A program made the position numbers and the translations under genes. A stretch of 64,000 bases of DNA from Rhodothermales bacterium (GTDB lineage Bacteria; Bacteroidota; Rhodothermia; Rhodothermales; UBA10348), in contig CBDFGO010000003.1 in the NCBI GenBank assembly GCA_965247125.1, forward strand, positions 6,058 through 70,057, in the 5' to 3' direction. A model generated the notes under the pieces. The model worked only from the letters and a program-made list of their open reading frames with translations, had not been told where the DNA came from and made no database searches. Shown here piece after piece: positions 6,255 through 52,175 of this stretch. Position 1 is the first letter of the stretch, and every line of letters begins with the position of its first letter.

Positions 6255-6268
6255 GTGAGCGCCGCCAA

Positions 6269-13140: not shown

Positions 13141-13339
13141 CGCAGTTGATGCCTTAATCCAAAATCGATTCGCCCGTCCATTTGTGTTAAGCCTTTGTAA
13201 CAGTTACACTTATTTCATCTTCGGATTCGGACGATGGCGTGTATTGCGATATCACTGATCCGCAGAGTAAATGTTCTACAGCACGCCGAAGAACTCGTAT
13301 TGAACCTGGATAATTCTTCGTTCGACTAGGTGGTTACTC

Positions 13340-33347: not shown

Positions 33348-33567
33348 GGTGCGAACTCCTTGAAAACTCTCCCCACTACGGGATTATGCATGATAAGTTA
33401 CCCAGATGTCACTAGCGAGTCGACATATTTAAGGATATTGTTAGTATATATATAAATAATTAAAGTATTATGTGCAAATAGTTAAGTTTATGAGGATACA
33501 AAATGAATAGTATTCAGTAGAGGTAGGTTGTATTGCCCCGGATGCTAGCGCACCAGAAGCTAGTTTT

Positions 33568-34443
33568 GTGTGCATGACCACTTCATTTCGTCTTTTGGCA
33601 TTCAGCTCCATCGTCTTCATGTTGTTCTCTACTGGTTGCTCATCCAGCGACCCCTCTGGAACAGATGAACGGCACAGCATCCTTTTCCAGGATGTCAATC
33701 GATTTGTTCATGTCCACTATCCTGATGGATATGACGAAGCCGATCCAATGCCTGTCGTACTGGCGTTTCACGGGGCAAATGGCTCCGGTCTCGGATTCCA
33801 GCAGGGAGCACGTCTGGACAGAGAAGCGGATGAGCACGGATTCATTGTAGCCTATCCCTCCGCATTCGGCAGCAACTGGGCGGAAGGCTGTAATTGTAGA
33901 CGACCGGACCTGGACGGAGTGGACGATGTTGGTTTCGCGGATCAGACCATCGAGCTGCTCGATGATCTCTATGAGATCGATCGAGCCCGGATTTATGCCG
34001 CAGGTTATTCTCAAGGTGGAATGTTTGTCCATAGATTGGCCTGCGAGCGAAGCGAAACGTACGCTGGTTTTTTCACGGTGGGATCCCTCATCTCCCTGCC
34101 ACTATCTCAAAACTGTGAACCTGATTCAGTAGTCGACATCATGATGCTGAACGGTACCGATGACGAATCGGTACCGTATCGAGGAAGATCAGACGGCTCC
34201 TATTCCCTCAAGGGCGCGCTTGAGACCTATTTTATGTGGGGGGCCAAAAACGGCTGCCCGAACTTCAGGGATCCGCAAACGATTCGCAACGGTGGTCGGA
34301 CCACCCACGTTCATCTCATTGAGTCATGCATGGGAGGATCCAGGGTGCGCCTGGACGAAATCGTAAACGGAACCCACGAATGGCCGATTGGAGATATTGA
34401 CGCACCATCACTTCTGACCGAATTCTTTCGCCTCAGCCGATGA
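33568..34443 (+). CDS. Lipoprotein esterase of the PHB-depolymerase/feruloyl-esterase family (alpha/beta hydrolase).
   Basis: Lipobox LFSTGC. Nucleophile elbow GYSQGG. HGANGSG region. Confidence 0.7.
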   Translation: MCMTTSFRLLAFSSIVFMLFSTGCSSSDPSGTDERHSILFQDVNRFVHVHYPDGYDEADPMPVVLAFHGANGSGLGFQQGARLDREADEHGFIVAYPSAFGSNWAEGCNCRRPDLDGVDDVGFADQTIELLDDLYEIDRARIYAAGYSQGGMFVHRLACERSETYAGFFTVGSLISLPLSQNCEPDSVVDIMMLNGTDDESVPYRGRSDGSYSLKGALETYFMWGAKNGCPNFRDPQTIRNGGRTTHVHLIESCMGGSRVRLDEIVNGTHEWPIGDIDAPSLLTEFFRLSR

Positions 34444-35599
34444 GCGGTAGCCAGCTTTCGGCCACCCAGAATCCGAGAAAGGTGCCCACTGCGTAGCCGA
34501 GGGATCCGATCAGGATCGAGGGAAGAACCAGATCCTCACGCCCCAGACTACGGGCGAGTGCGAGCGCGGAAGTGCCACCTCCGATGTTGGCCTGCGAGGC
34601 GATAGATGCGACCACTGGATCGATCTTGAAAAACAGAGCGGCCGAATAGACAAGCACGCCGTGAATCAGGACGGTAACGGACGTAAATATCAGAAGATTT
34701 ACGCCGAGCCCACCCAGCTCTCCCATTGCTCCGATATCGCAGTATGCCCCGATAACCGCTAGAAACAAGTAGACGGCGAACATTCCCAAGACCTTCAGTC
34801 CGGGAAGCTTCGAAAGGGTCGGTATCTGCGCGAGAATCAGGGCAATCGCGGTGAGGATCAGTGCCGATGGCACGCTCGGGACCAGCGTAGCAAGCTGTTC
34901 GGAGAGCCAAACTGCGCCAAAACCAAGTCCCAAGACCACCCCGAGATCGACGGGGTCAACCGTTTCCGTATCCTCTTTTACACCAGTTGATACGTCTCCA
35001 ATTATGGATTCGATCTCGCGACCTTTGGGTCGCGGCCATACGTGAATAATTGCCCGTGGAATCGCAAGGGTTATGATCATCCAGGTCGTGGTGATGATGT
35101 TGTCAACAACAACCGAGCCGCTGAACAGCAGGCCCTCCTCCATGACATTGTAGGTCAATGCCAGGGAATTGAAGTTGACGCTTCCTCCGGTGTAGGTGCC
35201 CACGAACATCCCGCCGATAGCATTATAGAGTGGTCCGATTGTCTCGGCGCCGTCGATTACACACATTCCCACGAAGACGCCGATTGCTGTCGCCAGAGAA
35301 CCAAAAAGGAAGAGAAAAACCATCTGTCTTCCGGCCCGGAGAACATCCCGGAGATTGACCGGCAAAAGGAGCCAGAAAATGGCGAGAGGCGCTATCGTCG
35401 AAAAAATGTAGTCGTAGGCGGGTGCTGGATTTGCAGCAGATGAACCCGTCGGTAGCAGACCCACATTGGCTACTATCGCGGTCACGAGAATAACCAGCAG
35501 CGCCGTGCCAAAGTGCTTCAGGACCGTCCGCCGGACTAGCATTTCCGTGACGAAGACGATAGCACTCAGAACGCCAATGATATACGCGGACTCTGTCAT
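34433..35599 (-). CDS. Polytopic inner-membrane protein, possibly DUF819-like.
   Basis: About 10 predicted TM helices; no catalytic motif recognised. Confidence 0.4.
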   Translation of the reverse strand: MTESAYIIGVLSAIVFVTEMLVRRTVLKHFGTALLVILVTAIVANVGLLPTGSSAANPAPAYDYIFSTIAPLAIFWLLLPVNLRDVLRAGRQMVFLFLFGSLATAIGVFVGMCVIDGAETIGPLYNAIGGMFVGTYTGGSVNFNSLALTYNVMEEGLLFSGSVVVDNIITTTWMIITLAIPRAIIHVWPRPKGREIESIIGDVSTGVKEDTETVDPVDLGVVLGLGFGAVWLSEQLATLVPSVPSALILTAIALILAQIPTLSKLPGLKVLGMFAVYLFLAVIGAYCDIGAMGELGGLGVNLLIFTSVTVLIHGVLVYSAALFFKIDPVVASIASQANIGGGTSALALARSLGREDLVLPSILIGSLGYAVGTFLGFWVAESWLPLIG

Positions 35600-35712
35600 G
35601 ATGAAGCTGGTAGGGACCTAAATGAACTCAGTACGTTGAAGCTACCCGGTCGGAATCCGGCGTCGGAGTATCGTCAATGCTCGCCTGAAGACCAAACTTT
35701 ACAGCTGCCTTA

Positions 35713-36930
35713 ATGCTCACGTTCGACGAAAAGACGAGATACAGTCGTCACCTCTTGCTACCGGAATTCGGAGAAGCGGGTCAGCGCAGGTTGAAGGAAT
35801 CCTCAGTGCTCGTCGTCGGCGCGGGAGGACTTGGTTCGGGCGCGCTGATGTACATGGCCGCTGCCGGAATCGGAAGAATCGGGATCGTGGAATTTGATAC
35901 GGTCGACGCAAGCAATCTTCACCGACAAATATTGTACGGAACAGATGATGTCGGCGCCTCCAAACTGTCGGTGGCAAGTCGAAGACTGCGCGATATCAAC
36001 CCGTTGATTGACATCGAACTTCATGAGATGCGGTTGACCTCCGAGAATGCCATGAAGCTTATTTCTGATTATGATATTGTCGCAGACGGCACGGATAATT
36101 TCGCGACGCGCTATCTGGTGAACGACGCCTGTGTGTTGACCTCCACACCCAACGTGTTCGCTTCCATTTTTAGATTTGACGGCCAACTGTCGGTCTTCGG
36201 AGCGAAGGATGGACCCTGTTACAGGTGCCTGTTTCCCCAGCCGCCACCTGCCGGATCCGTACCGTCGTGCGCGGAAGGAGGGGTTCTGGGTGTTCTACCG
36301 GGTATTCTTGGTATTCTTCAGGCCACAGAGGTCATCAAAATGCTGGTGGACCTCGGAGAATCGCTGATCGGCAAAATGCTCTTGATTGACGCCCTGACGA
36401 TGCATTTTAAGACCCTGAGAATTTCGAAGGATGTGGAATGCGCGGTTTGTGGGGAACGTCCAACGATAGATAAATTGATAGACTACGAGTCGTTCTGTGC
36501 TGGAATTGATACGAGTGATTCAGCGGATCGCTCGCAATCGTTACCAGACCCGTCCGATTCCCCGCCAAAGACTTCAACTGCGTCCAACAACTTGCTGTTT
36601 TCACCTCAGGCATCTCTCATCGACGTCCACCAGCTCAAGGAAATTCGAGAGAGTGGAGAAGACTTCCTGCTCCTCGATGTTCGGCAACCAGAAGAACTAT
36701 CGATAGCGGACATCGGCGGCGTGTCGGTGCCCATGAATGAGCTTCCGGAGCGCCTGGATGAGGTCGCGCCGGACAAGAAGCAGAAAATCGTTGTGATGTG
36801 CCGCAGTGGTGTTCGATCAGCAAACGTCGCGGCGTGGCTGGGCAAACAGGACTATGAAAATGTACAAAGCCTCGACGGCGGCATTCTTGCCTGGTCACAG
36901 CATATCGATCCGACCATCGCCGTTTACTGA
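35713..36930 (+). CDS. moeB: MoeB/ThiF-type E1 adenylyltransferase with a C-terminal rhodanese domain (MoeZ-type).
   Basis: GAGGLGS nucleotide-binding motif. CxxC pairs CYRCLFP and CAVCGE. Rhodanese region LLLDVRQPEE...VMCRSGVRS. Confidence 0.85.
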   Translation: MLTFDEKTRYSRHLLLPEFGEAGQRRLKESSVLVVGAGGLGSGALMYMAAAGIGRIGIVEFDTVDASNLHRQILYGTDDVGASKLSVASRRLRDINPLIDIELHEMRLTSENAMKLISDYDIVADGTDNFATRYLVNDACVLTSTPNVFASIFRFDGQLSVFGAKDGPCYRCLFPQPPPAGSVPSCAEGGVLGVLPGILGILQATEVIKMLVDLGESLIGKMLLIDALTMHFKTLRISKDVECAVCGERPTIDKLIDYESFCAGIDTSDSADRSQSLPDPSDSPPKTSTASNNLLFSPQASLIDVHQLKEIRESGEDFLLLDVRQPEELSIADIGGVSVPMNELPERLDEVAPDKKQKIVVMCRSGVRSANVAAWLGKQDYENVQSLDGGILAWSQHIDPTIAVY

Positions 36931-36960
36931 ACCGCCAAAATTATTACTCGTCACCGCTAC

Positions 36961-39186
36961 ATGATCCGTTTGATCTGGCCTGTTCTACTATTCCTCTTCG
37001 CCGCGTCCGCGGCAAGTGCTCAGGACCCCGTCGTCCTTCAGAGAATCGAGGGCCCCGTTCAACTGGATGGGATCTCTGACGAGCCAGCGTGGGAAAGTAT
37101 CGACCCCGTCCCTCTGAGCATGTACGAACCTATTTCTGGCGGGACGATGACGGAACGAACCGTAATCAAAGTCGGATACGACGATGATTTTCTCTACGTA
37201 TCCGGCCAAATGTATGACTCCGACGCAGATGGAATTCGAGGCAATACGCTCTATCGAGACCGGTATTCGGGAGACGACGTATTCGCCATCGTACTGGACA
37301 CGTTCAACGACAATGAAAACGCGTTGTGGTTCTACACTACGCCCACAGGTGTGCGTCTGGACTACGCAGTATCGAAGGATGCAAACGGATTTGGTGGAAT
37401 TTCGACATTCGGCGGTGGCGTGATAAACAGTTCCTGGAATACCTATTGGGATGTAGAAACAGTCCGGACGGACGAAGGCTGGTTCGCTGAAATGAGGATT
37501 CCCTATTCGAGCCTCAGTTTTCAGGAAAAGGACGGACGTATAGAAATGGGGATGATCACCTATCGACTGATTGCACGAAAGGGTGAACGTCACATCTATC
37601 CCCTCATTCCCCCCAACTGGAGTATGGGCTTTGCCAAACCGTCCCAGGCCCAGAAGGTCATATTGGAAAATGTTCTCAGCAAGAAACCAATTTATATCAC
37701 GCCGTATCTGACGGGCGGTAGCACGGGTCTGAATGCCCTGAACGACGACGATTCGGCTTACGAGTTTGATAGCGAGTTCACGCGGCAGGTCGGCCTGGAT
37801 CTCAAGTATGCGATCAACAGCAATCTTACCCTGGATGCGACCGTCAACACGGATTTTGCGCAGGTTGAAGCAGACGATCAGCAGGTCAATCTTTCCCGAT
37901 TCTCGCTGTTTTTCCCTGAAAAGAGACAGTTTTTTCAGGAGCGAGCGGGTCTATTCGATTTTTCAACGGGTCGCCGAGATCGACTTTTTCATAGTAGACA
38001 GATAGGCATCAATGACGGCGAGACGGTACGCATTTTGGCGGGGGGGCGTGTCGTTGGGCGGGTAGGATCATGGGATCTGGGTTTTATCGATATGCAGACT
38101 GAATCCTCCGGTGATCTTCCCTCCGAAAATTTCGGCATTCTGCGTCTTCGCCGGCAGGTGATCAACGACCAGTCCTATGCAGGAGGCATGTTTACGAGTC
38201 GCCTGGGAGATGACGGTTCCTACAACGCGGTTTATGGATTGGATGGCTCGTTCAAGATCGGAAGGGACGATTATCTGGACCTGAAATGGGCACAGACCTT
38301 CGATGATGACACTATCGACACGACCGGATTTGATTTTACCGGGGCGGCTTATGCTTCAGCGCAGATTGCCCGGCGCAACGACATTGGTCTATCGTTTCGG
38401 TCTGGGGTCTCCTACTCGGGTACCGACTTTAATCCGGGCATTGGCTTCGTCCAGCGAAACGACTACACTCAGGTATCGTGGGACGTTCAGTATGGATGGC
38501 TTTCTTCGGACGAGGCGAAGCTTCGGACACACGACGGGTCGGTGTACGGGAATGTTTATTTCAGAAATGAGGACGGTAGTATCGAGTCCGTACGGGCTGG
38601 AGGAAGCTGGGACTTCGATTTCAAGTCGAGTGCGAGTGCCAGGAGCAATGTGAATTTCATCGTAGAGGACCTCACGAGCGAGCTTCAGTTTCCAAATGAT
38701 ACCTCGGTCCCTGAGGGCCGATATTCATTTGTCGAGTGGGAGACGAGCTACAATATGTCCAGTGGCAACCTTTTTAGGGGCCGTTATCAGTTGCAGATTG
38801 GTTCTTTCTACGACGGCTGGCGGTATGAGGCGGGGTTCAACCCCACCTGGAATGTCAGTCGATTTGTTGAACTGGGAGGCAGCTACAAATTTACCCGCTT
38901 GGAATTTCCGGATCGCGATCAGTCCGCCGATATTCACCTGGTCGGAGTCAGGGCCCAGATCGGTTTCAACACCAAGGTATCATTGAACTCCTTTGTGCAG
39001 TACAACACGTCTGCGAAGGTAGTCGCCTCCAATGTCCGATTTCGCTACAACCTGTCGGAAGGAAACGACCTTTGGCTCGTCTACACTGAAAACCTGAACT
39101 CCGATCGGTTCCGTGAAAGTCCAGCACTACCCCTTTCAAACAACCGAACGTTTCTCCTCAAGTACACCTACACATTCATTAGATGA
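36961..39186 (+). CDS. CBM9-like N-terminal domain plus DUF5916-type beta-barrel protein, secreted or outer-membrane.
   Basis: Signal peptide ...AASAQ. Family-typical DGxxDEPxW N-terminus. Confidence 0.6.
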   Translation: MIRLIWPVLLFLFAASAASAQDPVVLQRIEGPVQLDGISDEPAWESIDPVPLSMYEPISGGTMTERTVIKVGYDDDFLYVSGQMYDSDADGIRGNTLYRDRYSGDDVFAIVLDTFNDNENALWFYTTPTGVRLDYAVSKDANGFGGISTFGGGVINSSWNTYWDVETVRTDEGWFAEMRIPYSSLSFQEKDGRIEMGMITYRLIARKGERHIYPLIPPNWSMGFAKPSQAQKVILENVLSKKPIYITPYLTGGSTGLNALNDDDSAYEFDSEFTRQVGLDLKYAINSNLTLDATVNTDFAQVEADDQQVNLSRFSLFFPEKRQFFQERAGLFDFSTGRRDRLFHSRQIGINDGETVRILAGGRVVGRVGSWDLGFIDMQTESSGDLPSENFGILRLRRQVINDQSYAGGMFTSRLGDDGSYNAVYGLDGSFKIGRDDYLDLKWAQTFDDDTIDTTGFDFTGAAYASAQIARRNDIGLSFRSGVSYSGTDFNPGIGFVQRNDYTQVSWDVQYGWLSSDEAKLRTHDGSVYGNVYFRNEDGSIESVRAGGSWDFDFKSSASARSNVNFIVEDLTSELQFPNDTSVPEGRYSFVEWETSYNMSSGNLFRGRYQLQIGSFYDGWRYEAGFNPTWNVSRFVELGGSYKFTRLEFPDRDQSADIHLVGVRAQIGFNTKVSLNSFVQYNTSAKVVASNVRFRYNLSEGNDLWLVYTENLNSDRFRESPALPLSNNRTFLLKYTYTFIR

Positions 39187-39980
39187 GTCGTTTTTCTCTC
39201 CTTCTGCTAATCGTCGTGGTTCTGAATTCAGGATGTGCTCGTTCAGATTCTGACCAACCGACCCTCGAAGATGCTTCGGCTGTCCTGGCTGCTATGAAAT
39301 CCACGTACGACGGTGAGTGGTACGAAACACTCACCTTTGTCCAGACAACCATCCAGTTCGATCCGACCGGTGGAGTGGATACCACCTCCTGGTTCGAGGG
39401 AATTGAGATTCCCGGGAAGCTGCGAATCGATATCGGATCTCCCACGTCTGGGAATACGATGATTTTTCGGGAAGACTCCATCTACGTTTTTCGGGATGGA
39501 CAACTCGCCAATGCCGCAGCGACAATTCATCCGCTCCTGCGTCTCGGATTTGATGTCTATGGAATGCCCACGGATGAGGCACGCGCAAAGCTTGATAGTC
39601 TGGGATTCGATCTTGAGAGAATGCATATAGCCTCGTGGCAGGATCGGAATGCGTACGTGATCGGAACAGACGTCGAAGGTGATCTGGATACCTCTCAGTT
39701 CTGGATAGACGCAGAGAGACTCGTATTCGTGCGACTCCTGCAGGGGGTTGGCCGCAACAGATCCGTCCGACAAGAGATCTTATTCAATGACTATCAACCG
39801 CTTGGAGGCGGCTGGATCGCTCCGGAAGTACGATTCTATGCTGATTCGACGATCACTCTGATTGAACGTTATCACAGCATCGAAATCGGGACAGAATTTG
39901 GTGATGGATATTTTGAGCCCGGCTCATTTATCAATGCAGACCATTGGTTTGACGACGAGTTACTCGGAACCGGTCGCTAA
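39183..39980 (+). CDS. Lipoprotein, possibly LolA-like fold.
   Basis: Lipobox LNSGC. Start overlaps the upstream stop. Confidence 0.4.
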   Translation: MSRFSLLLLIVVVLNSGCARSDSDQPTLEDASAVLAAMKSTYDGEWYETLTFVQTTIQFDPTGGVDTTSWFEGIEIPGKLRIDIGSPTSGNTMIFREDSIYVFRDGQLANAAATIHPLLRLGFDVYGMPTDEARAKLDSLGFDLERMHIASWQDRNAYVIGTDVEGDLDTSQFWIDAERLVFVRLLQGVGRNRSVRQEILFNDYQPLGGGWIAPEVRFYADSTITLIERYHSIEIGTEFGDGYFEPGSFINADHWFDDELLGTGR

Positions 39981-40516
39981 TCGAGTTTTTTACGTCGCAT
40001 CTTGGGCATACCAATTGGAAGGATTGCTCCGTCGGTAATCAGGTCCTGCAAAAGAGCCCCTTCCAGATTGACGCCCGTTAGATCTGCCCCCGTCAGGATG
40101 GTTTCACGCAGATGTGCCTCGACCAGGCAGGCGTTTCTCAGGGTAGCGTTGAACAAGATGGCCTCTGACAGTCGGCAGCGAGTCATATCTGCTCCATCCA
40201 GGTCACACCCGGTCAGCGTAGCGTAGCTCAGATCCACGCCTATCAGTCGCGCACCTCGGACGGTTGCCTTGCTCAAGTCGGCTCCGGTTAGATTGGCTTC
40301 CGTCAAATCGGCCTCGTTCAAATTGGCATCATCCAATTCAGCAACGGTCAGGAGAGTGGCTTTCAGGTCTGACCTTTCAAAGTTAATACCCTGAAGGAAG
40401 CGTCCTGTCAGATCGTGCGCGCTCAAATCAGGCGTGATGTCTGGATTTTCTGTCCGCCACGCATTCCAGGCTTCAATTCCCTGGTCTAAAATATCGATAT
40501 GGTGCTTATCTGCCAC
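39977..40516 (-). CDS. Pentapeptide-repeat protein.
   Basis: Tandem A(D/N)LxxA(N/D)L repeats throughout. Confidence 0.8.
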   Translation of the reverse strand: MADKHHIDILDQGIEAWNAWRTENPDITPDLSAHDLTGRFLQGINFERSDLKATLLTVAELDDANLNEADLTEANLTGADLSKATVRGARLIGVDLSYATLTGCDLDGADMTRCRLSEAILFNATLRNACLVEAHLRETILTGADLTGVNLEGALLQDLITDGAILPIGMPKMRRKKLD

Positions 40517-40929
40517 GAGATTTGGCTGGCTAATAACACGAAACTATAGGAAAGCGTCGACATTAATGCGCGATTCGACCGGGTATCGTGAATTGGCGTG
40601 TCTTTCTGCAACTGGATTCTTTTATTGTATGTATAATCCGGGGGTAAGCAAATATTCTACCTTCCATTACGATACAGGACCTGGCTGAATTTCCATGGTG
40701 ATAGTTCTTCTCCTTACAATGACACTGTTGGCCTACAAACTAGGCGCCTTTGACGAGTACATCGAACACCGTCAGATGTTGTTGATGGATCACGATGTGA
40801 TGATCGAGATCGACGAGGCCACCTGGGAAGATCGTCAGATACGCTTCCGCGCGACCCATCCTGGGCTTGGAGAACGCTCCTACGTATCTCTGGGTCGCAG
40901 GCGCTGAGCCACGGTAGAACTCTCAAGAA

Positions 40930-41207
40930 TGTAGAGTCGTAACCTGGCAGCCAACGTTGGTCAGATATTCGTGCTGATGACCTCCGAACTGACCGGTCTG
41001 GTGCTGATCTCTGTTGTGATAGCCGTTCCGTTCGCCTGGTTCACCATGTCCGGCTGGCTTGAAAACTTTGCCTATCGTATTGACCTGTCCTGGTGGATTT
41101 TCGGACTTGCTGGGCTGACAGCTCTGGTGCTCGCCATTGCAACGGTCGCATACCAATCCATCAAGGCTGCTCTCGCGGATCCAATTGTCAGTCTTCGCTA
41201 CGAATAG
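40930..41207 (+). pseudogene. C-terminal fragment of an FtsX-family ABC permease.
   Basis: ...WLENFAYRIDLSWWIFGLAGLTALVLAIATVAYQSIKAALADPIVSLRYE is a typical FtsX C-terminal TM4 plus tail. No upstream body is present. Confidence 0.55.
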
Positions 41208-41216: not shown

Positions 41217-41408
41217 CTAGTTCGAGGGCTCGTAGCAGTACTCGTTCTTGGAGAGGCAGGGTTGAAGCAATGAATCGGGGCGGGCCATGGCCGCTTGCTC
41301 CTCTGCGGAGGCATCTACTATAAAATCTCTACACCCTGTGGTGGAGAAGCTCGTAAGGAGGATAAACGCCAGTGTGATGGCGAGTCTATGTGTGAGGGGT
41401 CGTTTCAT
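41217..41408 (-). CDS. Small lipoprotein (63 aa).
   Basis: Signal peptide with TTGC lipobox. Confidence 0.35.
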   Translation of the reverse strand: MKRPLTHRLAITLAFILLTSFSTTGCRDFIVDASAEEQAAMARPDSLLQPCLSKNEYCYEPSN

Positions 41409-41554
41409 GATGATTACCCGATTTTTCGACTCAGTTTTGGCGATTCGGGGAATCCCTCATGTCTAGTATCGGCTGATTAAGTGAAATATTAACAAAGACT
41501 TAAGGCGGTGATTAAGTTTTCGGTATTCTCTGTAGCGATTCGCAGACGTCGCAA

Positions 41555-41597
41555 AACGAAAAAACGCCCTAACACACTGCAATGCAGTGGTTAGGGC
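41555..41597 (-). terminator. Rho-independent terminator on the minus strand.
   Basis: Minus strand reads GCCCTAACCACTGC-ATT-GCAGTGTGTTAGGGC followed by TTTTTT. It terminates a transcript originating in the 41600-41790 noncoding region. Confidence 0.5.
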
Positions 41598-41796
41598 GAA
41601 TGGGCTGACTAAAGAGTGTGGAGCTAAGGAGAGTCGAACCTTATCTCGGTTTCGCGAACGTTTCGCTGGATATCATGCCTATATGGGCGTTACAGAGTGA
41701 AATTTCTCTGGACCGTTTCTAACATATTGCAAATCTAGAAAAAATCCGTCACCTTATCCGTCACCTATTTCATTTAAGTTAACCCCCATTACACCG

Positions 41797-42663
41797 GTGG
41801 CTAAAGTTCGCATTGTCCCGTGGACGGGTAAGAAAGATGCCGAGGGTAGAATGCCACTCTATCTCGTCATTCACCATAAGAACAGGCGCTCAACCATCGC
41901 CTTGCCTGTCCGCATAAAGATGAAAGACTGGAATCCCAGGCGTGGAGAAATTCGCAATTCAAATCCAGACCACGTGAGGCTCAATCTCCGTCTCTTGGAG
42001 GTACTCGGCAAAGCGAGAGCTGCCCTTCAGGACGCACTGTTAGAGGATACAACTATCTCCTCGCACCGAATCAAAGCATCAATATTAGGAGATGCTTCGG
42101 ACGCTGAAAGAGATTTCTTTGCCTACTATGAATCCCAGCTTAATGCATATCGACAAAGACAGCAATGGGCAACATCGGAAGCGTACCGGGTAGCTCTCAA
42201 AAAGCTACGTGACTACACCCGCGGGTCGAGCGGACGAACGACACTTGACTTCGACGACTTGACAGTATCCTTCATTGAAGGATTCCGGACATACCTCATC
42301 GGTTACTGTGGCAACGGCAAGAACACCGTCCACAAAAATCTGGCAAGTATTCGCACGATTCTTTATTCAGCGATCCGTGAAGGACGCTTCCCGCAGGAAA
42401 AGAACCCCTTCTTCCAGATTCGGATGGAAAAACAGAAAAGGACGAAGAACAAATCGATTGATATCGAAGATGTCTGGAAAATCGAAGACGCGGACCTCGG
42501 CGAGGGCAGAATCATAGATGTTCGTAACTGCTTTGTGTTCGCATTCTACAATGCTGGTATGCGTGTTTCCGATGTCCTTCAGCTTCAAGGACAGGATATG
42601 GTAAAGCGAAGCGGAATTTGGAGAGTTGAGTATGAAATGGAGAAGACGGGTGCAGACTCTTTC
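41797..42663 (+). pseudogene. Tyrosine recombinase/integrase, C-terminally truncated by IS256 copy 5.
   Basis: MAKVRIVPWTGKKDAEGRMPLYLVIHHKNRRSTIALPVRIKMKDWNP is homologous to the 12162-12633 fragment. The tail ...FELCPKVVYG is IS-encoded. Confidence 0.75.
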
Positions 42664-44047
42664 GAGCTATGCCCAAAAGTTGTGTATGGGTGAAAAAGGT
42701 ATAGGCGGCGTATCCTGATGATGATTACGTCATTGTCAATCCGAAGATTGGAGGATACACCGCCCATGAAGACGAATAACGCACACGAGAACGAGAACTA
42801 CAATAGCACAGAGGATGTGTTGACAGAAGTATTGCGAACAGGGGCCGCAAAGATGCTGGCCACAGCCGTTGAGGCCGAGGTTGAAGCTTTCTGCCAGCGC
42901 TACCAGTTCCTGCGCGACGAAGAGAATCGCCACCGCATCGTTCGCAATGGATATCTGCCAGAGAGGAAGATTTTGACTGGTATCGGGGAGGTCGCTGTAA
43001 AGATGCCCCGCATACGCGACCGTACGGGTCGGGGTGAGGATAGAATCGGTTTCCGCAGTTCGATACTACCAGCCTACCTCCGCAAGAGCCGCTCGCTTGA
43101 GGCCCTCATTCCATGGTTGTACCTGAAGGGAGTTTCAACGGGCGGCTTTGAGGCAGCGCTCTCGGCCCTTGTTGGTCCTGATGCCCCAGGGCTGACCTCC
43201 TCGACGATTGCGCGCCTGAAGACGCTTTGGACAAGGGAGCACGAAGACTGGCAAAAGCGGAGCCTGAAGGAGAAGCACTACGTCTATTTCTGGGCCGACG
43301 GTATTCACGTAAACGTACGCATGGATAAACAGAAACTGTGTCTGCTGGTCGTGATCGGCGCTACGGCCGATGGAAGGAAGGAGCTTATAGCACTCGAGGA
43401 CGGCTTTCGCGAGAGCAAGCAGTCGTGGCGAGAGTTGCTCCTGGAGCTGAGGCACCGCGGGCTGGATCAAGGACCGAAGCTGGCTGTTGCCGATGGAGCC
43501 ATGGGATTCTGGAGTGCTCTCGCAGAAGTTTATCCCGAGACGCGAGCCGCACGCTGTTGGGTGCACAAGACAGCAAATGTGCTCAACCGCCTGCCCAAGT
43601 CCGTTCAGAAGAAGGCAAAAGGTCACCTCACGCAGATCTATACAGCAGAAACAAAAAAGCAGGCAGAGAGCGCCCTTCTGTTTTTCATCAAAGCCTACCA
43701 GCAAAAGTATCCGAAAGCAGCAGAGATTCTGGTGAAAGACCGAGAAGAACTGCTCGCTTTTTATGACTTTCCGGCAGAACACTGGATCCATCTTCGGAGC
43801 ACAAATCCGATCGAATCTACGTTCGCGACCGTGCGCCTCAGGACCGCCAAAACGAGGGGATGTCTGAGCCGAGAAACAGCTCTTGCAATGGCCTTCCGTC
43901 TATGTAAAGAGGCTCAGAAGAAGTGGAGGAAACTGAATGCACCGCACCTATTGCAACTTGTAAAAAAAGGAATCAAATTCACCGACGGAATTACATCAGA
44001 ACGACACGCTGCCTAAACCTTCCATACACAACTTTTGGGCATAGCTC
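42664..44047 (+). mobile_element. IS256-family IS, copy 5, with a chimeric transposase-proximal terminus.
   Basis: Both termini are the GAGCTATGCCC type, forming a perfect IR. The transposase-proximal end reads GAGCTATGCCCAAAAGTTGTGTATGG|GTGAAAAAGGTATAGG, which is the IRL outer part joined to the IRR inner part. No target duplication. Confidence 0.9.
42718..44016 (+). CDS. IS256-family transposase.
   Basis: 432 aa. Confidence 0.9.
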   Translation: MMITSLSIRRLEDTPPMKTNNAHENENYNSTEDVLTEVLRTGAAKMLATAVEAEVEAFCQRYQFLRDEENRHRIVRNGYLPERKILTGIGEVAVKMPRIRDRTGRGEDRIGFRSSILPAYLRKSRSLEALIPWLYLKGVSTGGFEAALSALVGPDAPGLTSSTIARLKTLWTREHEDWQKRSLKEKHYVYFWADGIHVNVRMDKQKLCLLVVIGATADGRKELIALEDGFRESKQSWRELLLELRHRGLDQGPKLAVADGAMGFWSALAEVYPETRAARCWVHKTANVLNRLPKSVQKKAKGHLTQIYTAETKKQAESALLFFIKAYQQKYPKAAEILVKDREELLAFYDFPAEHWIHLRSTNPIESTFATVRLRTAKTRGCLSRETALAMAFRLCKEAQKKWRKLNAPHLLQLVKKGIKFTDGITSERHAA

Positions 44048-44345
44048 ATTTTATAACTCCTTGTACTGCTAACCTTAACGCGCATTAACTTCTTCTGGGT
44101 TAAGGATTTTATTGAGTTTTCACCTCGATAATGGAAATCAATGACTCTGCTGAACACCTTACTTACCACCTGAACGTTGCTGGGCATGTGCAAGATTGTC
44201 ATGATTCCTACCTATTGACGCGCAATGTCATCAACTAAGCGGAAAAAGTGTTCTCATACATGCGAATCAAATCAACGCCTTGTATCACATAACTCAAAAA
44301 TACTACTATAATATTATATGCGAATATTCCACCAAATACTCCAAC

Positions 44346-45729
44346 GAGTTAACCCCGAAAGTTGTGTACGGGTGAAAAAGGTATAGGCGGCGTATCCTGA
44401 TGATGATTACGTCATTGTCAATCCGAAGATTGGAGGATACACCGCCCATGAAGACGAATAACGCACACGAGAACGAGAACTACAATAGCACAGAGGATGT
44501 GTTGACAGAAGTATTGCGAACAGGGGCCGCAAAGATGCTGGCCACAGCCGTTGAGGCCGAGGTTGAAGCTTTCTGCCAGCGCTACCAGTTCCTGCGCGAC
44601 GAAGAGAATCGCCACCGCATCGTTCGCAATGGATATCTGCCAGAGAGGAAGATTTTGACTGGTATCGGGGAGGTCGCTGTAAAGATGCCCCGCATACGCG
44701 ACCGTACGGGTCGGGGTGAGGATAGAATCGGTTTCCGCAGTTCGATACTACCAGCCTACCTCCGCAAGAGCCGCTCGCTTGAGGCTCTCATTCCATGGTT
44801 GTACCTGAAGGGAGTTTCAACGGGCGGCTTTGAGGCAGCGCTCTCGGCCCTTGTTGGTCCTGATGCCCCAGGGCTGACCTCCTCGACGATTGCGCGCCTG
44901 AAGACGCTTTGGACAAGGGAGCACGAAGACTGGCAAAAGCGGAGCCTGAAGGAGAAGCACTACGTCTATTTCTGGGCCGACGGTATTCACGTAAACGTAC
45001 GCATGGATAAACAGAAACTGTGTCTGCTGGTCGTGATCGGCGCTACGGCCGATGGAAGGAAGGAGCTTATAGCACTCGAGGACGGCTTTCGCGAGAGCAA
45101 GCAGTCGTGGCGAGAGTTGCTCCTGGAGCTGAGGCACCGCGGGCTGGATCAAGGACCGAAGCTGGCTGTTGCCGATGGAGCCATGGGATTCTGGAGTGCT
45201 CTCGCAGAAGTTTATCCCGAGACGCGAGCCGCACGCTGTTGGGTGCACAAGACAGCAAATGTGCTCAACCGCCTGCCCAAGTCCGTTCAGAAGAAGGCAA
45301 AAGGTCACCTCACGCAGATCTATACAGCAGAAACAAAAAAGCAGGCAGAGAGCGCCCTTCTGTTTTTCATCAAAGCCTACCAGCAAAAGTATCCGAAAGC
45401 AGCAGAGATTCTGGTGAAAGACCGAGAAGAACTGCTCGCTTTTTATGACTTTCCGGCAGAACACTGGATCCATCTTCGGAGCACAAATCCGATCGAATCT
45501 ACGTTCGCGACCGTGCGCCTCAGGACCGCCAAAACGAGGGGATGTCTGAGCCGAGAAACAGCTCTTGCAATGGCCTTCCGTCTATGTAAAGAGGCCCAGA
45601 AGAAGTGGAGGAAACTGAATGCACCGCACCTATTGCAACTTGTAAAAAAAGGAATCAAATTCACCGACGGAATTACATCAGAACGACACGCTGCCTAAAC
45701 CTTCCATACACAACTTTTGGGCATAGCTC
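44346..45729 (+). mobile_element. IS256-family IS, copy 6, inserted in the 3' part of the FtsX permease gene.
   Basis: 9-bp target duplication TACTCCAAC on both sides. Confidence 0.9.
44400..45698 (+). CDS. IS256-family transposase.
   Basis: 432 aa. Confidence 0.9.
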   Translation: MMITSLSIRRLEDTPPMKTNNAHENENYNSTEDVLTEVLRTGAAKMLATAVEAEVEAFCQRYQFLRDEENRHRIVRNGYLPERKILTGIGEVAVKMPRIRDRTGRGEDRIGFRSSILPAYLRKSRSLEALIPWLYLKGVSTGGFEAALSALVGPDAPGLTSSTIARLKTLWTREHEDWQKRSLKEKHYVYFWADGIHVNVRMDKQKLCLLVVIGATADGRKELIALEDGFRESKQSWRELLLELRHRGLDQGPKLAVADGAMGFWSALAEVYPETRAARCWVHKTANVLNRLPKSVQKKAKGHLTQIYTAETKKQAESALLFFIKAYQQKYPKAAEILVKDREELLAFYDFPAEHWIHLRSTNPIESTFATVRLRTAKTRGCLSRETALAMAFRLCKEAQKKWRKLNAPHLLQLVKKGIKFTDGITSERHAA

Positions 45730-47679
45730 TACTCCAACTACCATTAACCACAATTCCGGGACTTGTGATCCGAATTGACTGGACCATTTTTCGTTCCAGG
45801 CGATCAAAACAACCAGTGATACGATAAAAGCAATAACATTGGGTACTAGAAGAGGTCTCATCAACGTTTTAACATTTTCTAGGGTAGTAGCACCGCAATA
45901 ACGTCGAATAGCCAAGTTTTTAAGGTTTGCGGTAATTGTCGCGCGAGCTCCGAAATGCCCCATAACCATGCATAGAATAACAGAAAACAAAGACATGACT
46001 GCCACAAATACCTTCGCCTCGATAATCTTTCGGTAGGGTTTCGCATAGGCAGATTCAATTGAATAGACTGACGGTGCGATTTTTGTAACTGACTGTATTA
46101 ATGATTGTATTTCTCTAATCACCTCGCTAGTTACAGGACGGGAAGTTTTCACAATGATTTGAATGGGATTGGCGTCCATTAATAGTATAGCCAAGGGCGT
46201 GATGGGAGCATCTAAATACTGGAACTTAAAATCCTCCACGATTGCTGTCACTCGCGGAGAACCCGCAAAGCAACATTTATACTCCCGGCCTAAAATGGTA
46301 TTGATACTTTCTCCTTCGACTTCCACCGCTTTTCGGTTCAATATCACCGGAACGAAGTCATCTAGATTCGACCCGGAATTTACTGATCCAGATAAGATCT
46401 CTATATCCAAGACATCAAAAAAACCTTCAGACACCATCAGTGTTGACGGATAATCACTAAATATTGGTTCTTCTTTCAGTGGTTGCAACATTTTCGGAAA
46501 ATCTGAGCCAGGATATGGAACGAAAACATCACTGGAGCTAACAATGAGAGAGGATGTCAGAAGCTTCTGTTTGATCTCTGATAAAAAGCCCCTTTCAGAA
46601 GCAGTCACGTCAATTCCAGCCAAATTCTCTACTTCGAATCCATAGTCTGGTTGCAGCAACTGGTTCATATGTTTATTAAGCAACAACGAACTTGATACTA
46701 ATACGACAGAACAGACCGCCAGTATTAGCTGGATTCCAATCTCATTTGTTCGCTTCGTGGATGACAACGACTGTGTTGCCGCTGTTCGCAGCGAGGCGTT
46801 TTTAAATGTGACATAAGACATCAAAAACCCAATTGATAACAGTGCAAATACAATTGCGCAAAACAAAAGGGCAGATAAAGCGAGATGACCGCCAACACTA
46901 TTGCCATACGTTCCTGAAATAGCCAATATGCTCACAACAAGAATACCAGCTAGAATAAACTGCCCGGCCTGGACGCTGAATGACAACAGCAATAGTCTGG
47001 CAATATTTGACTTGGATGCGCCATAGACGATTCTTATAGCGAAACTCTTGAACTTGAGTAAATTTCGATGCCATAGAAATAGCATATAAAGTGCTGAAGC
47101 GACTATCTGCAAGAGCACCGAGTATATGTAAAGAGAGGCGCCCAGTACAGAGTGCGCTTTTATACTTGGGTCATCTTGGATCGTACGTATTTTACTTAAT
47201 TCTCTTACGTGACGAAGGGTAATCCTAGCCTGACCTCCATTCCATTCATGAATGCTATACATTCTGGGAACGATCGTCCTCAAGTAGTCATTCATGTTGT
47301 CTTCGACTTCTTGCACTTGTACACCACGTGCAATTCTCACATACGAGTAACTATTTGAAAGGCGCCATTCCGAATCTGAGTTCTTTTCGTTGCTTACGTA
47401 AACCTCAGATGGATTGAGAACGAGATATCCGAAATCGATGTGTGAGTTGTGTTTGAGCTGGGGACGCGCATGATTGATAATAGTTGGGATTGAATTGTCT
47501 TCAGCGATAACATTCACATAAACAGAGTCTGGTCCGTCAGACTTGGCAATTAGACGCTTCGAAAGCACAGTCGGATAGGCGCGTATGGCAATAGCGTCTC
47601 CAAAAATGAGATTGTAACTTTGATAAGAGGTGAAGTAAGCTGCATCGAATCTAAATACCTCATTGTCGAACCGTATCAT
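45730..47679 (-). pseudogene. FtsX-family ABC transporter permease (MacB-like, two FtsX repeats), split into three pieces by IS21-A and IS256 copy 6.
   Basis: FtsX signatures FAIRIVYGASKSNIARLL and LAIRRYCGATTLENV. N-terminal 92 aa lie at 49812-50088 and the C-terminal ~40 aa at 44222-44345. Across the TACTCCAAC duplication the frame rejoins as ...MVVGVFGGIFAYNIIVVFLSYVIQ... Confidence 0.75.
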
Positions 47680-47793: not shown

Positions 47794-49029
47794 ATGCTAA
47801 AAAGTAGAACTGTGAACACACTTCGTGAACTGGCCGCTGACGGTCACTCCATCCGGGAGATCAGCAAACGCATGGGGCTTTCTCGTAACACTGTCCGTAA
47901 GTACTTGCGGACCATACCGGTGCCTGCTCCTCGGCCTAAACGGTATTCCAAACTGGAACCCTTCAAAGAGCAGGTTCGCCGTTGGGTACTCGAGGATCGA
48001 CTCCTCAACTGCGTGACCATGCATGAACGACTGCAGGTGATGGGATATAGCGGGGGCCTGACGATCCTGAAAGATTATGTTCGGCCACTTCGTCCGGCGA
48101 AAGGAGGCCGCCGACCGGTTCGGCGCTATGAGACCGATCCTGGCGAGCAGATGCAGATCGATTGGGGAACCTTTATGTACGAAGTAGGAGGTGTTCGCAA
48201 GAAGATCTACGGCATGACGGCGGTCATGAGTTACTCGCGCATGCGATATGTTATCTTCTCGAAGCGTTGCGACACAGCCAGTCTGATTCGTGCCATCCAA
48301 GACGCGCTGGAATACTTTGGTGGCCTGCCACAGACCATCCTGAGTGATCGCATGAAGAGTGTGCTGCTCACGGTCGAAGACGGACAATTCATCTGGAACA
48401 GTGTTTATGCCGATTTTTTAGCCGCGATTGGCGTAGTGCCACGGGTGTGTCGCTCGAGAGTGCCACAGACGAAGGGAAAGGTCGAACGCTCCATCCGGGT
48501 CATCAAAGAGAGCTTCTGGCCCGGTGTGCGCTTTGGCGATGTTGGCCACCTCAACGAACAGGCCAGAATCTGGTACACATCCCGCAACTCACGTCTTCAC
48601 CGAACGACACATGAGCGGCCCGATGAGCGACACCAGAGGGAAAAACTGAGCTCCTTGCCTGTGGGCTACGCATGGGAACGATTCCGGAGTGAGCCTAGGC
48701 GAGTAACGTGGGATGGCTTTATCTCCTTTGACGGCGTACTCTACGGCCTTCCGAGCGAACCACTGACGGCCGGCGACCTGGTCGATGTCACCTACCGCGA
48801 TCAGGAGATCCTCGTCTGGTACAAAGGACACCTCGTCGTTCGTCACCGAGTGCGCCACGAGTCCGGACTAACGGTCTGGCATGCGGACCAGTTTAAAACG
48901 ATTCCACCCGCAGCTGAGAGCCACCGCTTGCCCGCTCCCGTTGCATACCAGGTGCCCTCCATTGAAGCGCCGCGTCGCTCGCTCACCGAGTATGATGATC
49001 TCTTCAAGGCGCAAGAGGTTGTGATATGA
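47794..49029 (+). CDS. istA: IS21 transposase IstA.
   Basis: N-terminal HTH (HSIREISKRMGLSRNTVRKYL) and DDE core. Confidence 0.85.
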   Translation: MLKSRTVNTLRELAADGHSIREISKRMGLSRNTVRKYLRTIPVPAPRPKRYSKLEPFKEQVRRWVLEDRLLNCVTMHERLQVMGYSGGLTILKDYVRPLRPAKGGRRPVRRYETDPGEQMQIDWGTFMYEVGGVRKKIYGMTAVMSYSRMRYVIFSKRCDTASLIRAIQDALEYFGGLPQTILSDRMKSVLLTVEDGQFIWNSVYADFLAAIGVVPRVCRSRVPQTKGKVERSIRVIKESFWPGVRFGDVGHLNEQARIWYTSRNSRLHRTTHERPDERHQREKLSSLPVGYAWERFRSEPRRVTWDGFISFDGVLYGLPSEPLTAGDLVDVTYRDQEILVWYKGHLVVRHRVRHESGLTVWHADQFKTIPPAAESHRLPAPVAYQVPSIEAPRRSLTEYDDLFKAQEVVI

Positions 49030-49793
49030 GCACGACCCTTGCCATTGATGATCTTCTGCGCCGCCTACGTCTTGGACAGTTGGCTTCGCAGCTTCCAGAG
49101 CTGATCGAAGGAGCGCGGCAGCAGAAACTATCGTACGAACGATTCCTGGCCTCCGTTCTCGAGACCGAACTGCGTGGACGCGACGATCGTGCACTCGTGC
49201 GCCGGATGCGTTCGGCCCGCTTACCCCTGAAAGCCCGTTTAGAGACCTTCGACTTTGCCTTCCAGCCCTCGATCTCTGAGCGCCTGGTTGGCGAACTGGC
49301 GCAAGGATCCTATCTCGATACGGCTACTAACGTAATCCTGCTCGGGCCACCGGGCGTGGGAAAGACCCATCTGGCCTGTGCGCTCGCCGTTAAAGCTATC
49401 GAGAGCGGACATACGGCACGCTTTACAACGCTTCGCTCATTGATCACGGATCTGGGAGGACTCGGACGACGTGAGGTCAAGACGCTGCGGGCGTATCTAA
49501 AACCAGATTTGTTGATCATTGATGAGATTGGTTATTCCCAGCTCAGTCCCGATAACGCTAACAGTCTCTTCGAACTTATCACCGCACGATATGAACGTGG
49601 ATCCATCATCCTGACGAGTAATCTCTCCTTCAATGACTGGGGCAACCTGCTCGGAGACGATGTCCTGGCGACTGCCATGCTCGACCGTCTGCTGCACCAC
49701 GCCGAGGTCATCACCATTAACGGACGCTCCTACAGAATGCGTAACCACATAGAAAACGATCAACCATCCACCGCCGTGGGTGGGTCAATTTAA
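49026..49793 (+). CDS. istB: IS21 helper ATPase IstB.
   Basis: Walker A LLGPPGVGKTHLA and Walker B LLIIDEIG. Confidence 0.9.
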   Translation: MSTTLAIDDLLRRLRLGQLASQLPELIEGARQQKLSYERFLASVLETELRGRDDRALVRRMRSARLPLKARLETFDFAFQPSISERLVGELAQGSYLDTATNVILLGPPGVGKTHLACALAVKAIESGHTARFTTLRSLITDLGGLGRREVKTLRAYLKPDLLIIDEIGYSQLSPDNANSLFELITARYERGSIILTSNLSFNDWGNLLGDDVLATAMLDRLLHHAEVITINGRSYRMRNHIENDQPSTAVGGSI

Positions 49794-50429: not shown

Positions 50430-51813
50430 GAGCTATGCCCAAAAGTTGTGTATGGAAGGTTTAGGCAGCGTGTCGTTCTGATGTAATTCCGTCGGTGAAT
50501 TTGATTCCTTTTTTTACAAGTTGCAATAGGTGCGGTGCATTCAGTTTCCTCCACTTCTTCTGAGCCTCTTTACATAGACGGAAGGCCATTGCAAGAGCTG
50601 TTTCTCGGCTCAGACATCCCCTCGTTTTGGCGGTCCTGAGGCGCACGGTCGCGAACGTAGATTCGATCGGATTTGTGCTCCGAAGATGGATCCAGTGTTC
50701 TGCCGGAAAGTCATAAAAAGCGAGCAGTTCTTCTCGGTCTTTCACCAGAATCTCTGCTGCTTTCGGATACTTTTGCTGGTAGGCTTTGATGAAAAACAGA
50801 AGGGCGCTCTCTGCCTGCTTTTTTGTTTCTGCTGTATAGATCTGCGTGAGGTGACCTTTTGCCTTCTTCTGAACGGACTTGGGCAGGCGGTTGAGCACAT
50901 TTGCTGTCTTGTGCACCCAACAGCGTGCGGCTCGCGTCTCGGGATAAACTTCTGCGAGAGCACTCCAGAATCCCATGGCTCCATCGGCAACAGCCAGCTT
51001 CGGTCCTTGATCCAGCCCGCGGTGCCTCAGCTCCAGGAGCAACTCTCGCCACGACTGCTTGCTCTCGCGAAAGCCGTCCTCGAGTGCTATAAGCTCCTTC
51101 CTTCCATCGGCCGTAGCGCCGATCACGACCAGCAGACACAGTTTCTGTTTATCCATGCGTACGTTTACGTGAATACCGTCGGCCCAGAAATAGACGTAGT
51201 GCTTCTCCTTCAGGCTCCGCTTTTGCCAGTCTTCGTGCTCCCTTGTCCAAAGCGTCTTCAGGCGCGCAATCGTCGAGGAGGTCAGCCCTGGGGCATCAGG
51301 ACCAACAAGGGCCGAGAGCGCTGCCTCAAAGCCGCCCGTTGAAACTCCCTTCAGGTACAACCATGGAATGAGAGCCTCAAGCGAGCGGCTCTTGCGGAGG
51401 TAGGCTGGTAGTATCGAACTGCGGAAACCGATTCTATCCTCACCCCGACCCGTACGGTCGCGTATGCGGGGCATCTTTACAGCGACCTCCCCGATACCAG
51501 TCAAAATCTTCCTCTCTGGCAGATATCCATTGCGAACGATGCGGTGGCGATTCTCTTCGTCGCGCAGGAACTGGTAGCGCTGGCAGAAAGCTTCAACCTC
51601 GGCCTCAACGGCTGTGGCCAGCATCTTTGCGGCCCCTGTTCGCAATACTTCTGTCAACACATCCTCTGTGCTATTGTAGTTCTCGTTCTCGTGTGCGTTA
51701 TTCGTCTTCATGGGCGGTGTATCCTCCAATCTTCGGATTGACAATGACGTAATCATCATCAGGATACGCCGCCTATACCTTTTTCACCCGTACACAACTT
51801 TCGGGGTTAACTC
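50430..51813 (-). mobile_element. IS256-family IS, copy 7.
   Basis: 9-bp target duplication CTGCTAAAT. Confidence 0.9.
50461..51759 (-). CDS. IS256-family transposase.
   Basis: 432 aa. Confidence 0.9.
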   Translation of the reverse strand: MMITSLSIRRLEDTPPMKTNNAHENENYNSTEDVLTEVLRTGAAKMLATAVEAEVEAFCQRYQFLRDEENRHRIVRNGYLPERKILTGIGEVAVKMPRIRDRTGRGEDRIGFRSSILPAYLRKSRSLEALIPWLYLKGVSTGGFEAALSALVGPDAPGLTSSTIARLKTLWTREHEDWQKRSLKEKHYVYFWADGIHVNVRMDKQKLCLLVVIGATADGRKELIALEDGFRESKQSWRELLLELRHRGLDQGPKLAVADGAMGFWSALAEVYPETRAARCWVHKTANVLNRLPKSVQKKAKGHLTQIYTAETKKQAESALLFFIKAYQQKYPKAAEILVKDREELLAFYDFPAEHWIHLRSTNPIESTFATVRLRTAKTRGCLSRETALAMAFRLCKEAQKKWRKLNAPHLLQLVKKGIKFTDGITSERHAA

Positions 51814-52140: not shown

Positions 52141-52175
52141 TGACCTTACTCCGGTTTTCTGGACAGTTGATTAAG
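52141..52175. repeat. Solo 35-bp right-end IR fragment of IS3-B.
   Basis: TGACCTTACTCCGGTTTTCTGGACAGTTGATTAAG is a 35/35 match to the reverse complement of 12127-12161. Confidence 0.8.

Follow-up and report, generated by a model that had tools for sequence, protein, structure and literature searches.

What remains of a mobile element when its integrase gene stops short against an insertion sequence (IS), and how did it come to lie beside a strong terminator and a scrap of tRNA-like sequence? The question is raised by positions 41460-42663 of a 64,000-nucleotide stretch of Rhodothermales bacterium contig CBDFGO010000003.1, the whole of which is called the window below. We consider it very likely that 41559-42663 is the integrase-proximal, tRNA-distal attachment (att) junction of a defunct integrative element that had entered the 3′ end of a tRNA-Ala(GGC) gene. 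The truncated integrase gene (int) at this junction is referred to as integrase B, its locus as locus B, and a second truncated copy some 29 kb away as integrase A at locus A.

A tRNA-Ala end and an orphaned terminator

The original prediction had pointed to a T-loop-like sequence on the minus strand, GGTTCGACTC at 41631-41640, and to a strong minus-strand terminator close by. Both proved to be genuine features. The T-loop-like motif lies inside a 22-mer, GGTTCGACTCTCCTTAGCTCCA, at 41619-41640 on the minus strand, which occurs once in the window where 0 occurrences are expected. The 22-mer reads as the 3′-terminal 22 nt of a tRNA-Ala gene (positions 52-73), here a displaced copy of the att core: positions 52-53, the T-loop TTCGACT, the 3′ strand of the T-stem (CTCCT), the 3′ strand of the acceptor stem (TAGCTCC) and the discriminator A. 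One genome per species was scanned for the pattern GGTTCGACTCYCCTTAGCTCCA; this gave at least 119 loci, all of them, among the matches listed, being the one-base C62 variant GGTTCGACTCCCCTTAGCTCCA. This variant was the 3′ end of a tRNA-Ala(GGC/CGC) gene in 104 of the 120 matches listed, from many phyla, and of a tmRNA in none. As the 22-mer is so consistently a tRNA-Ala gene end, we assign the remnant to tRNA-Ala. No homolog of integrase B was found within the 8-kb block of any of the 119 listed loci with the 22-mer. Nine of the loci (L017, L026, L074, L076, L084, L093, L094, L098 and L105) carry the 22-mer away from the block edges with no overlapping tRNA gene, and were probably left behind as att remnants by other islands that had entered tRNA-Ala; L026 comes from the same metagenome-assembled genome as L066, the one with the fragment and the other with an intact tRNA.

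No full canonical tRNA could be folded at the outset, and this also stands, with ARAGORN (including its tmRNA mode) reporting 0 tRNA or tmRNA genes in the window and Rfam returning nothing there, either at gathering score or at E<=10. Their silence is explained by the fragment itself, which is too short for the models and has no 5′ partner strands.

Twenty nucleotides downstream of the remnant (41640-41619) on the minus strand lies a predicted Rho-independent terminator (41559-41598), recognized by a G+C-rich hairpin and a U-tract. The stem-loop, 41598-41565, has a 15-bp G+C-rich stem with one bulge and a 3-nt loop, and is followed by UUUUUUCGUUUU (U6CGU4). The 106-nt terminator fold reaches -32.7 kcal/mol (z = -3.4), and 0 of 200 shuffled sequences were as stable, which bears out the anatomy of an intrinsic terminator. 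A simple promoter/terminator consensus scan did not pick up this hairpin, we assume because of the bulge in its stem, and the same scan gave no sigma-70-like promoter on either strand.

An intact site in a relative, and a chimeric core

The origin of the terminator became clear from a related chromosome, L154. It carries an ortholog of the window protein encoded at 39183-39980 (90% identity), and the window is collinear with it over 33286-40951 at 86% nucleotide identity. About 2.7 kb past a pentapeptide-repeat gene shared with the window, an intact tRNA-Ala(GGC) gene stands in L154, on the strand that corresponds to that of the window fragment. The gene ends with ..AGGAGTTCGATTCTCCTTAGCTCCA, and a terminator, CGCCCTAAC..TGCAATGTGTTATGGCGATTTT, comes next. 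Local alignment of this terminator with that of the window scores 33, against 13.3 +/- 2.2 for shuffled sequences (maximum 27 in 2000) and only 13-19 for the flanks of other tRNA-Ala genes. The similarity is significant, and hence the hairpin at 41598-41559 is the tRNA-Ala gene's own terminator, now orphaned. It had been suggested that this terminator ends a transcript of the noncoding stretch beside it; it is instead the native terminator of tRNA-Ala(GGC), homologous to that of L154. With its intact tRNA-Ala(GGC), homologous terminator and syntenic neighbourhood, L154 can be read as a relative in which the site is unoccupied.

Comparison with L154 also suggests where the recombination may have taken place. 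The host-type tRNA, as represented by L154, has A52, T59 and T62. An element-type sequence with G52, C59 and C62 is found beside the closest homolog of the integrase, at locus L001, and also in other Rhodothermales tRNA-Ala genes. The window fragment combines the two, being element-type at G52 and C59, on the side of int, and host-type at T62, on the side of the terminator. Such a chimera places the strand exchange between tRNA positions 59 and 62, and is what a recombinant att junction should look like.

A truncated integrase and its upstream arm

The integrase B open reading frame (ORF), on the plus strand at 41797-42693, begins with GTG and encodes 298 aa. Its first 289 codons, 41797-42663, are native; they cover the arm-binding domain and the SAM-like core-binding domain and reach into the beginning of the catalytic domain. 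An IS starts at 42664, and its terminal inverted repeat supplies the remaining nine codons (ELCPKVVYG), so that the native integrase ends at 42663. Pfam matches Arm-DNA-bind_5 (E 5.6e-10) and Phage_int_SAM_5 (E 1.4e-16) in this ORF; it does not find the catalytic Phage_integrase domain there. The full-length homologs (414-444 aa, at most 75% identical) have all three domains in the order Arm-DNA-bind_5, Phage_int_SAM_5, Phage_integrase (PF00589). The closest of them, P0002, is 75% identical to integrase B over its residues 1-291, which tblastn aligns to 41797-42669, and its residues 292-417 have no tblastn match anywhere in the window, meaning that the catalytic two-fifths of int is gone. Integrase B retains the first catalytic Arg and the Lys and is without the HxxR motif, the His and the Tyr nucleophile; H361, R364, H387 and Y396, all of them invariant columns of alignment A1, fall past the break. 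Lacking these residues, the window copy is a pseudogene. By its domain architecture it is classed as a Bacteroidota-type tyrosine integrase (IntN1/IntDOT-type). Two intact paralogs, P0008 and P0025, lie in the same genome, on the same 2.0-Mb contig.

The IS at the break belongs to the IS256 family. It is 1384 bp long (42664-44047, plus strand) and encodes a 432-aa Mutator-type transposase at 42718-44016, plus strand (Transposase_mut, E 1e-64). No target-site duplication accompanies it, the 9-mers on its two sides, GACTCTTTC and ATTTTATAA, being different, and the window contains no more of int. Together these observations mean that the break is not a simple insertion and that recombination between IS copies removed the remainder of the gene. 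The original prediction of an integrase truncated where it runs into an IS256 copy is thus confirmed by Pfam, by tblastn and by the inverted repeat at 42664; inactivation by the simple insertion of that IS is not. No partner IS flanks that would show an inversion were found in the window. On its far side the IS adjoins 44048-44345 (minus strand), which holds the 3′ end of an unrelated gene, encoding a multi-pass membrane protein, together with its downstream flank; no integrase homology was found in this segment.

Between the core and the start of integrase B runs the element-side P arm, 41641-41796, with a conserved GGTTTCG..TTTCG block beside the core and a ATTGCAAATCT block. Two tandem direct repeats, CCGTCACCT-TAT-CCGTCACCT, occupy 41746-41766 on the plus strand, 31-51 bp before the start of int. 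These are exact copies, and no other exact copy occurs elsewhere in the window. In an alignment of seven loci, made up of locus B and six further close ones (L001, L002, L122, L123, L125 and locus A of the window), the CGTCACCTT and TCACC of the repeats are invariant, and on the int side the GGTTTC block next to the core and the ATTGCAAATCT block are kept. More distant relatives have analogous tandem repeats of 8-11 bp at the same place, for example two copies of TGTTTCAGT or two of ACCTGTACCA. From their position and invariance, and from the presence of an arm-binding domain in the integrase, we propose the CCGTCACCT repeats as putative arm-type integrase-binding sites, or as an operator of int.

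Recurrence of the layout and comparison with known elements

The arrangement at locus B is not peculiar to this window. The order of minus-strand terminator, minus-strand tRNA 3′ fragment, arm of 110-250 bp, tandem short repeats and plus-strand int recurs in all six further close loci. L001 carries a tRNA-Ala end beside int, L002 a different tRNA end (GGGTTCGACTCCCGGCATCTCCA) beside a 70%-identical integrase, and L122, L123 and L125 an arrangement like that of locus A with variant Ser-type ends. Most of about 15 more distant metagenome relatives repeat the layout, each with its own tRNA end and its own tandem repeats. Homologs elsewhere therefore do adjoin tRNA fragments, and the layout of an element integrated at a tRNA 3′ end, which had been proposed from this window, holds across the family. 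On the terminator side the window and L001 show no conservation, despite integrases that are 75% identical and a tRNA target that is the same. An alternative layout is seen at L129 and L148, where an intact tRNA stands directly before int.

Three complete elements resembling NBU1 (L132, L134 and L135), each of 10.2 kb, show what an undamaged arrangement of this kind looks like. About 270 bp in front of int is a 16-bp repeat of a tRNA-Leu 3′ end; on the opposite strand, about 8.6 kb past int, is the intact tRNA-Leu(taa). The three differ little or not at all on the int side, but they do differ on the terminator side. The order of parts is as at locus B: host terminator, displaced tRNA end, arm with tandem repeats, int, cargo and intact tRNA.

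In many tRNA islands the integrase gene adjoins the intact tRNA. L129 and L148 follow that pattern, whereas here, as in the closest relatives, int adjoins the displaced fragment. What is had in common with tRNA-integrated islands and prophages is an exchange within the T-loop to acceptor part of the tRNA. In the scheme ascribed to Williams (2002), integration reportedly duplicates the 3′ portion of the tRNA, so that one end carries the whole gene and the other only a piece of it. PMC6764341 cites this scheme. NBU1 integrates at the 3′ end of tRNA-Leu (PMC5704250 Table 1; PMC6692515) and NBU2 at that of tRNA-Ser (PMC5704250, PMC6692515), and the size and tRNA-Leu target of the three complete elements above match published NBU1 (PMC5704250). 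Locus B shares with NBU1 and NBU2 of Bacteroides (integrases IntN1 and IntN2) the Arm-DNA-bind_5, Phage_int_SAM_5 and catalytic architecture, a target at a tRNA 3′ end and a short core repeat. It differs in its target, tRNA-Ala, and in its host, a Rhodothermia-like lineage and not gut Bacteroides; no mob, oriT or cargo genes survive in the window, nor anything past codon 289 of int. Identity to the integrases of the NBU1-like metagenome loci, which were compared in place of the published NBU1 and NBU2 sequences, is only about 28%, and the repeat motif there is AGTTTCAGCAA, as opposed to CCGTCACCT here. The label NBU-like, by which we mean a resemblance in integrase family and att layout only, is used in this sense. 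The element is an additional example of a known tRNA-integrated type, and the branch of NBU-type integrases in the Rhodothermia lineage, to which it belongs, is uncharacterised.

How the junction may have formed

We propose that an element with a tyrosine recombinase inserted site-specifically into the 3′ end of a host tRNA-Ala(GGC) gene, its attP itself carrying a copy of the tRNA-Ala 3′ end. By recombination of attP with the 3′ end of the gene, a complete tRNA would have been restored at the element's far end, and the near end would have kept the displaced last 22 nt of the tRNA and its own terminator on the minus strand. The arm, with its tandem CCGTCACCT repeats (the probable arm-type Int sites), and int, both on the plus strand, would then adjoin the displaced end. 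Later, an IS256-family element would have entered int after codon 289, and recombination between IS copies would have removed the catalytic domain and everything past it, resulting in an immobile scar. On this model the native tRNA-Ala(GGC) 3′ end in the source genome would be expected to read ..TCTCCTTAGCTCCA, and the rebuilt tRNA-Ala(GGC) to be element-type past position 59-61, ..TTCGATTC[C]CCTTAGCTCCA.

Several observations weigh against this account. There is no intact tRNA-Ala and no second core in the 64-kb window, even with mismatches allowed, so that the far junction is unseen; the direct repeat of the att core that the original prediction would have looked for elsewhere in the window is thus not there. 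IS-mediated loss is the likely reason. Neither was a second att core found, with mismatches allowed, in L001, L002 or L122-L126. Beyond int in L001 and L002 the DNA looks chromosomal and has no tRNA within about 7 kb, and the elements there are large, or decayed, or of an unusual kind. Small HTH genes come after int in L122-L125, where no tRNA appears within 10 kb; no relaxase was found within 10 kb in the integrase homolog loci. No mobilization, replication or excision genes survive in the window. The chimerism rests on only three informative positions, and the host-type tRNA sequence is taken from the relative L154, not from the source genome. Finally, the window and L154 have different genes in the stretch that separates the pentapeptide-repeat gene from the tRNA site, so that the two regions are homologous without being collinear up to the tRNA. 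Synteny stops at window position 40951. In the gap, L154 (from 7637) has genes for PadR, DsbD and thioredoxin, and the window has a 78-aa ORF at 40971-41207, weakly like the FtsX C-terminus (E 0.0013, under the Pfam cut-off), and on the minus strand a 63-aa ORF at 41217-41408 that may encode a lipoprotein. The break at 40951 suggests an older deletion or replacement beside the tRNA site. The flank beyond the L154 terminator is likewise not collinear with the window, and the mreD side of the L154 tRNA locus is absent from the window, where only a PadR paralog at about 14150-14380 was matched.

The second integrase locus and the interval between

Integrase A (12162-12633, minus strand) retains about 157 native codons with an Arm-DNA-bind_5 domain and is 47% identical to integrase B (BLASTP E 2e-50). 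The gene is interrupted by an IS3-family element (about 10883-12161) with orfA and orfB, bounded on both sides by inverted repeats TGACCTTACTCC..; the right inverted repeat of this IS3 element also occurs alone, as a 33-bp copy at 52141-52173, abutting a partial copy of a further repeated element described below. Tandem CGTCACCT repeats, the same motif as before integrase B, precede the start of integrase A at 12676-12695 (minus strand). Beside the gene and on the opposite strand is a fragment (..CCCCC CCTCTCC G CA) at 12809-12827, plus strand, resembling a tRNA-Ser 3′ end in its acceptor and discriminator pattern only, and then an intrinsic terminator at 12834-12872, plus strand (fold -30.2 kcal/mol, z = -4.05). 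The original prediction had described two homologous integrases independently killed by IS elements 29 kb apart. That the two are homologous and that both are cut by an IS is correct, with the amendment that integrase A is cut by an IS3-family element and not by IS256.

Beyond the locus A terminator, by about 250 bp, lies a tandem array of a 15-bp unit (TGATATGCCGACGGA, 4.7 copies, 13067-13144). Motifs shared downstream of the Ser-type terminators, namely a palindrome AAGCAAGCTT and CTCGCTTCGCTC-like hairpins, were seen at about 12880-12990 of the window, at about 9660-9790 of L122, about 9520-9770 of L123 and about 1-130 of L125, and also in L147. They look like a host repeat family of REP or MITE type, or may be orthologous tRNA-Ser flanks.

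As element DNA lies on the int side of a displaced fragment, element B must have run rightwards from 41640 and element A leftwards from 12827. The two terminators point into the 29-kb interval, and the interval is therefore host backbone. Its right third, 33286-40951, is the part that is collinear with the L154 chromosome. The genes in the interval are ordinary ones (Band_7, esterase, DUF819, ThiF/rhodanese, DUF5916, proteases) with IS copies interspersed, and no mob, rep or xis genes were found among them.

Weighing other explanations

The original prediction took the interval between the integrases to hold the remains of one or two integrative elements, and the fact that it is rich in IS copies and bordered by both integrases would fit. 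We now regard this as very improbable, as each tRNA fragment separates its int from the interval and has its 3′ end and terminator turned towards the latter, the right third matches a relative's chromosome, its genes are ordinary with no mob, rep or xis, and neither an intact tRNA-Ala or tRNA-Ser nor a second att core was found inside 12.9-41.5 kb. It might be objected that the fragment and terminator were carried by the element as an attP-like site that arrived in another way, and that the locus is not a tRNA integration junction at all. Such a view could draw on the want of an intact tRNA partner, which was found neither in the window nor, within 10 kb, at any of the close homolog loci, and on the distant L129 and L148, in which a terminator sits on the element side, between the intact tRNA and int. 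Against it speak the terminator, which is homologous to the one native to tRNA-Ala in the syntenic L154, the terminator sides, which are not conserved between the window and L001 despite 75% identical integrases at the same tRNA, the host-type base at position 62 of the fragment and the complete NBU1-like loci, whose terminator side varies with the host. On balance an element-borne origin is very unlikely.

The identity of the RNA behind the remnant can also be disputed. The tmRNA gene (ssrA) is a classic island target, its 3′ end has the alanine-type acceptor stem in common with tRNA-Ala (G3:U70, ..GCTCCA), and the acceptor 3′ strand TAGCTCCA is compatible with it. Moreover, Rfam gives a weak tmRNA match over L002 2424-2562, minus strand, that covers the fragment and the arm (18.5 bits against a gathering score of 47, E 6.6e-4). 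A tmRNA end has next to no chance of being the right answer, however, when ARAGORN in tmRNA mode finds nothing in the window, the 120 listed matches of the 22-mer comprise 104 tRNA-Ala genes and 0 tmRNAs, and L154 has a tRNA-Ala(GGC) with a homologous terminator at the syntenic place. Nor do we see much prospect in reading the noncoding sequence at 41600-41796 as a functional minus-strand small RNA that uses the hairpin as its terminator. The strength of the terminator, the 156 bp of noncoding sequence upstream of it and the conservation of some blocks among the homolog loci would be in keeping with a small RNA. Against it, Rfam matched no family here, neither strand shows a promoter-like site, and what is conserved consists of direct repeats and of short motifs such as recombinases typically bind, not of paired helices; the terminator is already accounted for by the tRNA. 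A small RNA is extremely unlikely. The att junction at the tRNA-Ala(GGC) 3′ end remains, in our judgement, the reading that is very probably correct.

IS elements across the window

The IS that cut integrase B is one of ten copies of the same 1384-bp IS256-family element, with 99.4-100% identity, at 8210-9593, 16799-18182, 24015-25398, 26861-28244, 42664-44047, 44346-45729, 50430-51813, 52487-53870, 54431-55814 and 63237-64000, the last of which ends at the window edge. They show the features of the family: a Mutator-type transposase, 26-bp terminal inverted repeats and short target duplications. IS256 itself makes an 8-bp target duplication. The present copies are the same as other members of the family in their single Transposase_mut ORF, 26-bp inverted repeats and short duplications, and differ from IS256 in that the duplication, where present, is 9 bp. 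Perfect 9-bp duplications flank four of the nine complete copies. The other five have none, which points to repeated recombination between IS copies; as a rough estimate more than half of the copies have recombined. The copy in int, one of those without a duplication, also differs in its left inverted repeat (42664-42689, GAGCTATGCCCAAAAGTTGTGTATGG), which is the exact complement of the right repeat, while the other eight complete copies have in common a different left repeat, GAGTTAACCCCGAAAGTTGTGTACGG, with 5 mismatches.

The neighbouring membrane-protein gene was itself split by a copy of this IS (44346-45729) and resumes at 45739-47679. Excising that IS together with one copy of its 9-bp duplication, TACTCCAAC, rebuilds an ORF of 683 aa; no Pfam family was matched by the 668-aa membrane-protein ORF. 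Other repeated or IS-type sequences in the window include an element of about 1.2 kb with a 275-aa ORF, at 5921-7150, 9594-10806 and 19733-20956 and in part at 52173-52480. One of its copies is 90.6% identical to the reference copy, 5921-7150, and the 275-aa ORF has no Pfam match; the element is probably another IS. There are also an IS110-family transposase gene (DEDD_Tnp_IS110, 14580-15584, minus strand), an IS4/5-like transposase gene (DUF4096, 18696-19157, plus strand) and an IS21-type istA/istB pair (47794-49793, plus strand). All IS types counted, roughly one third of the window is IS sequence, a density that looks like ongoing IS expansion, and this context may hold more biological interest than the att scar.

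Significance

Locus B is a common kind of genome fossil and involves no new mechanism. One consequence of its decay may be considered, which is that the truncated int, with its arm-binding and core-binding domains complete, could be expressed as a predicted non-catalytic DNA-binding protein and act as a natural dominant-negative integrase. The upstream region of the gene is intact and keeps the invariant CCGTCACCT repeats. We think this very doubtful; if true, the fragment might occupy the arm and core sites of sibling elements, modulating their excision or integration.

The practical value is in annotation. The junction marks the native tRNA-Ala(GGC) site and shows which side of it was mobile DNA, and it illustrates that tRNA detectors can return nothing for a real 22-nt att remnant. 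For the integrase family, the invariant CGTCACCT tandem repeats are a candidate arm site for this branch, and the chimeric fragment is a small natural record of the exchange point for the Rhodothermia-lineage branch of NBU-type integrases.

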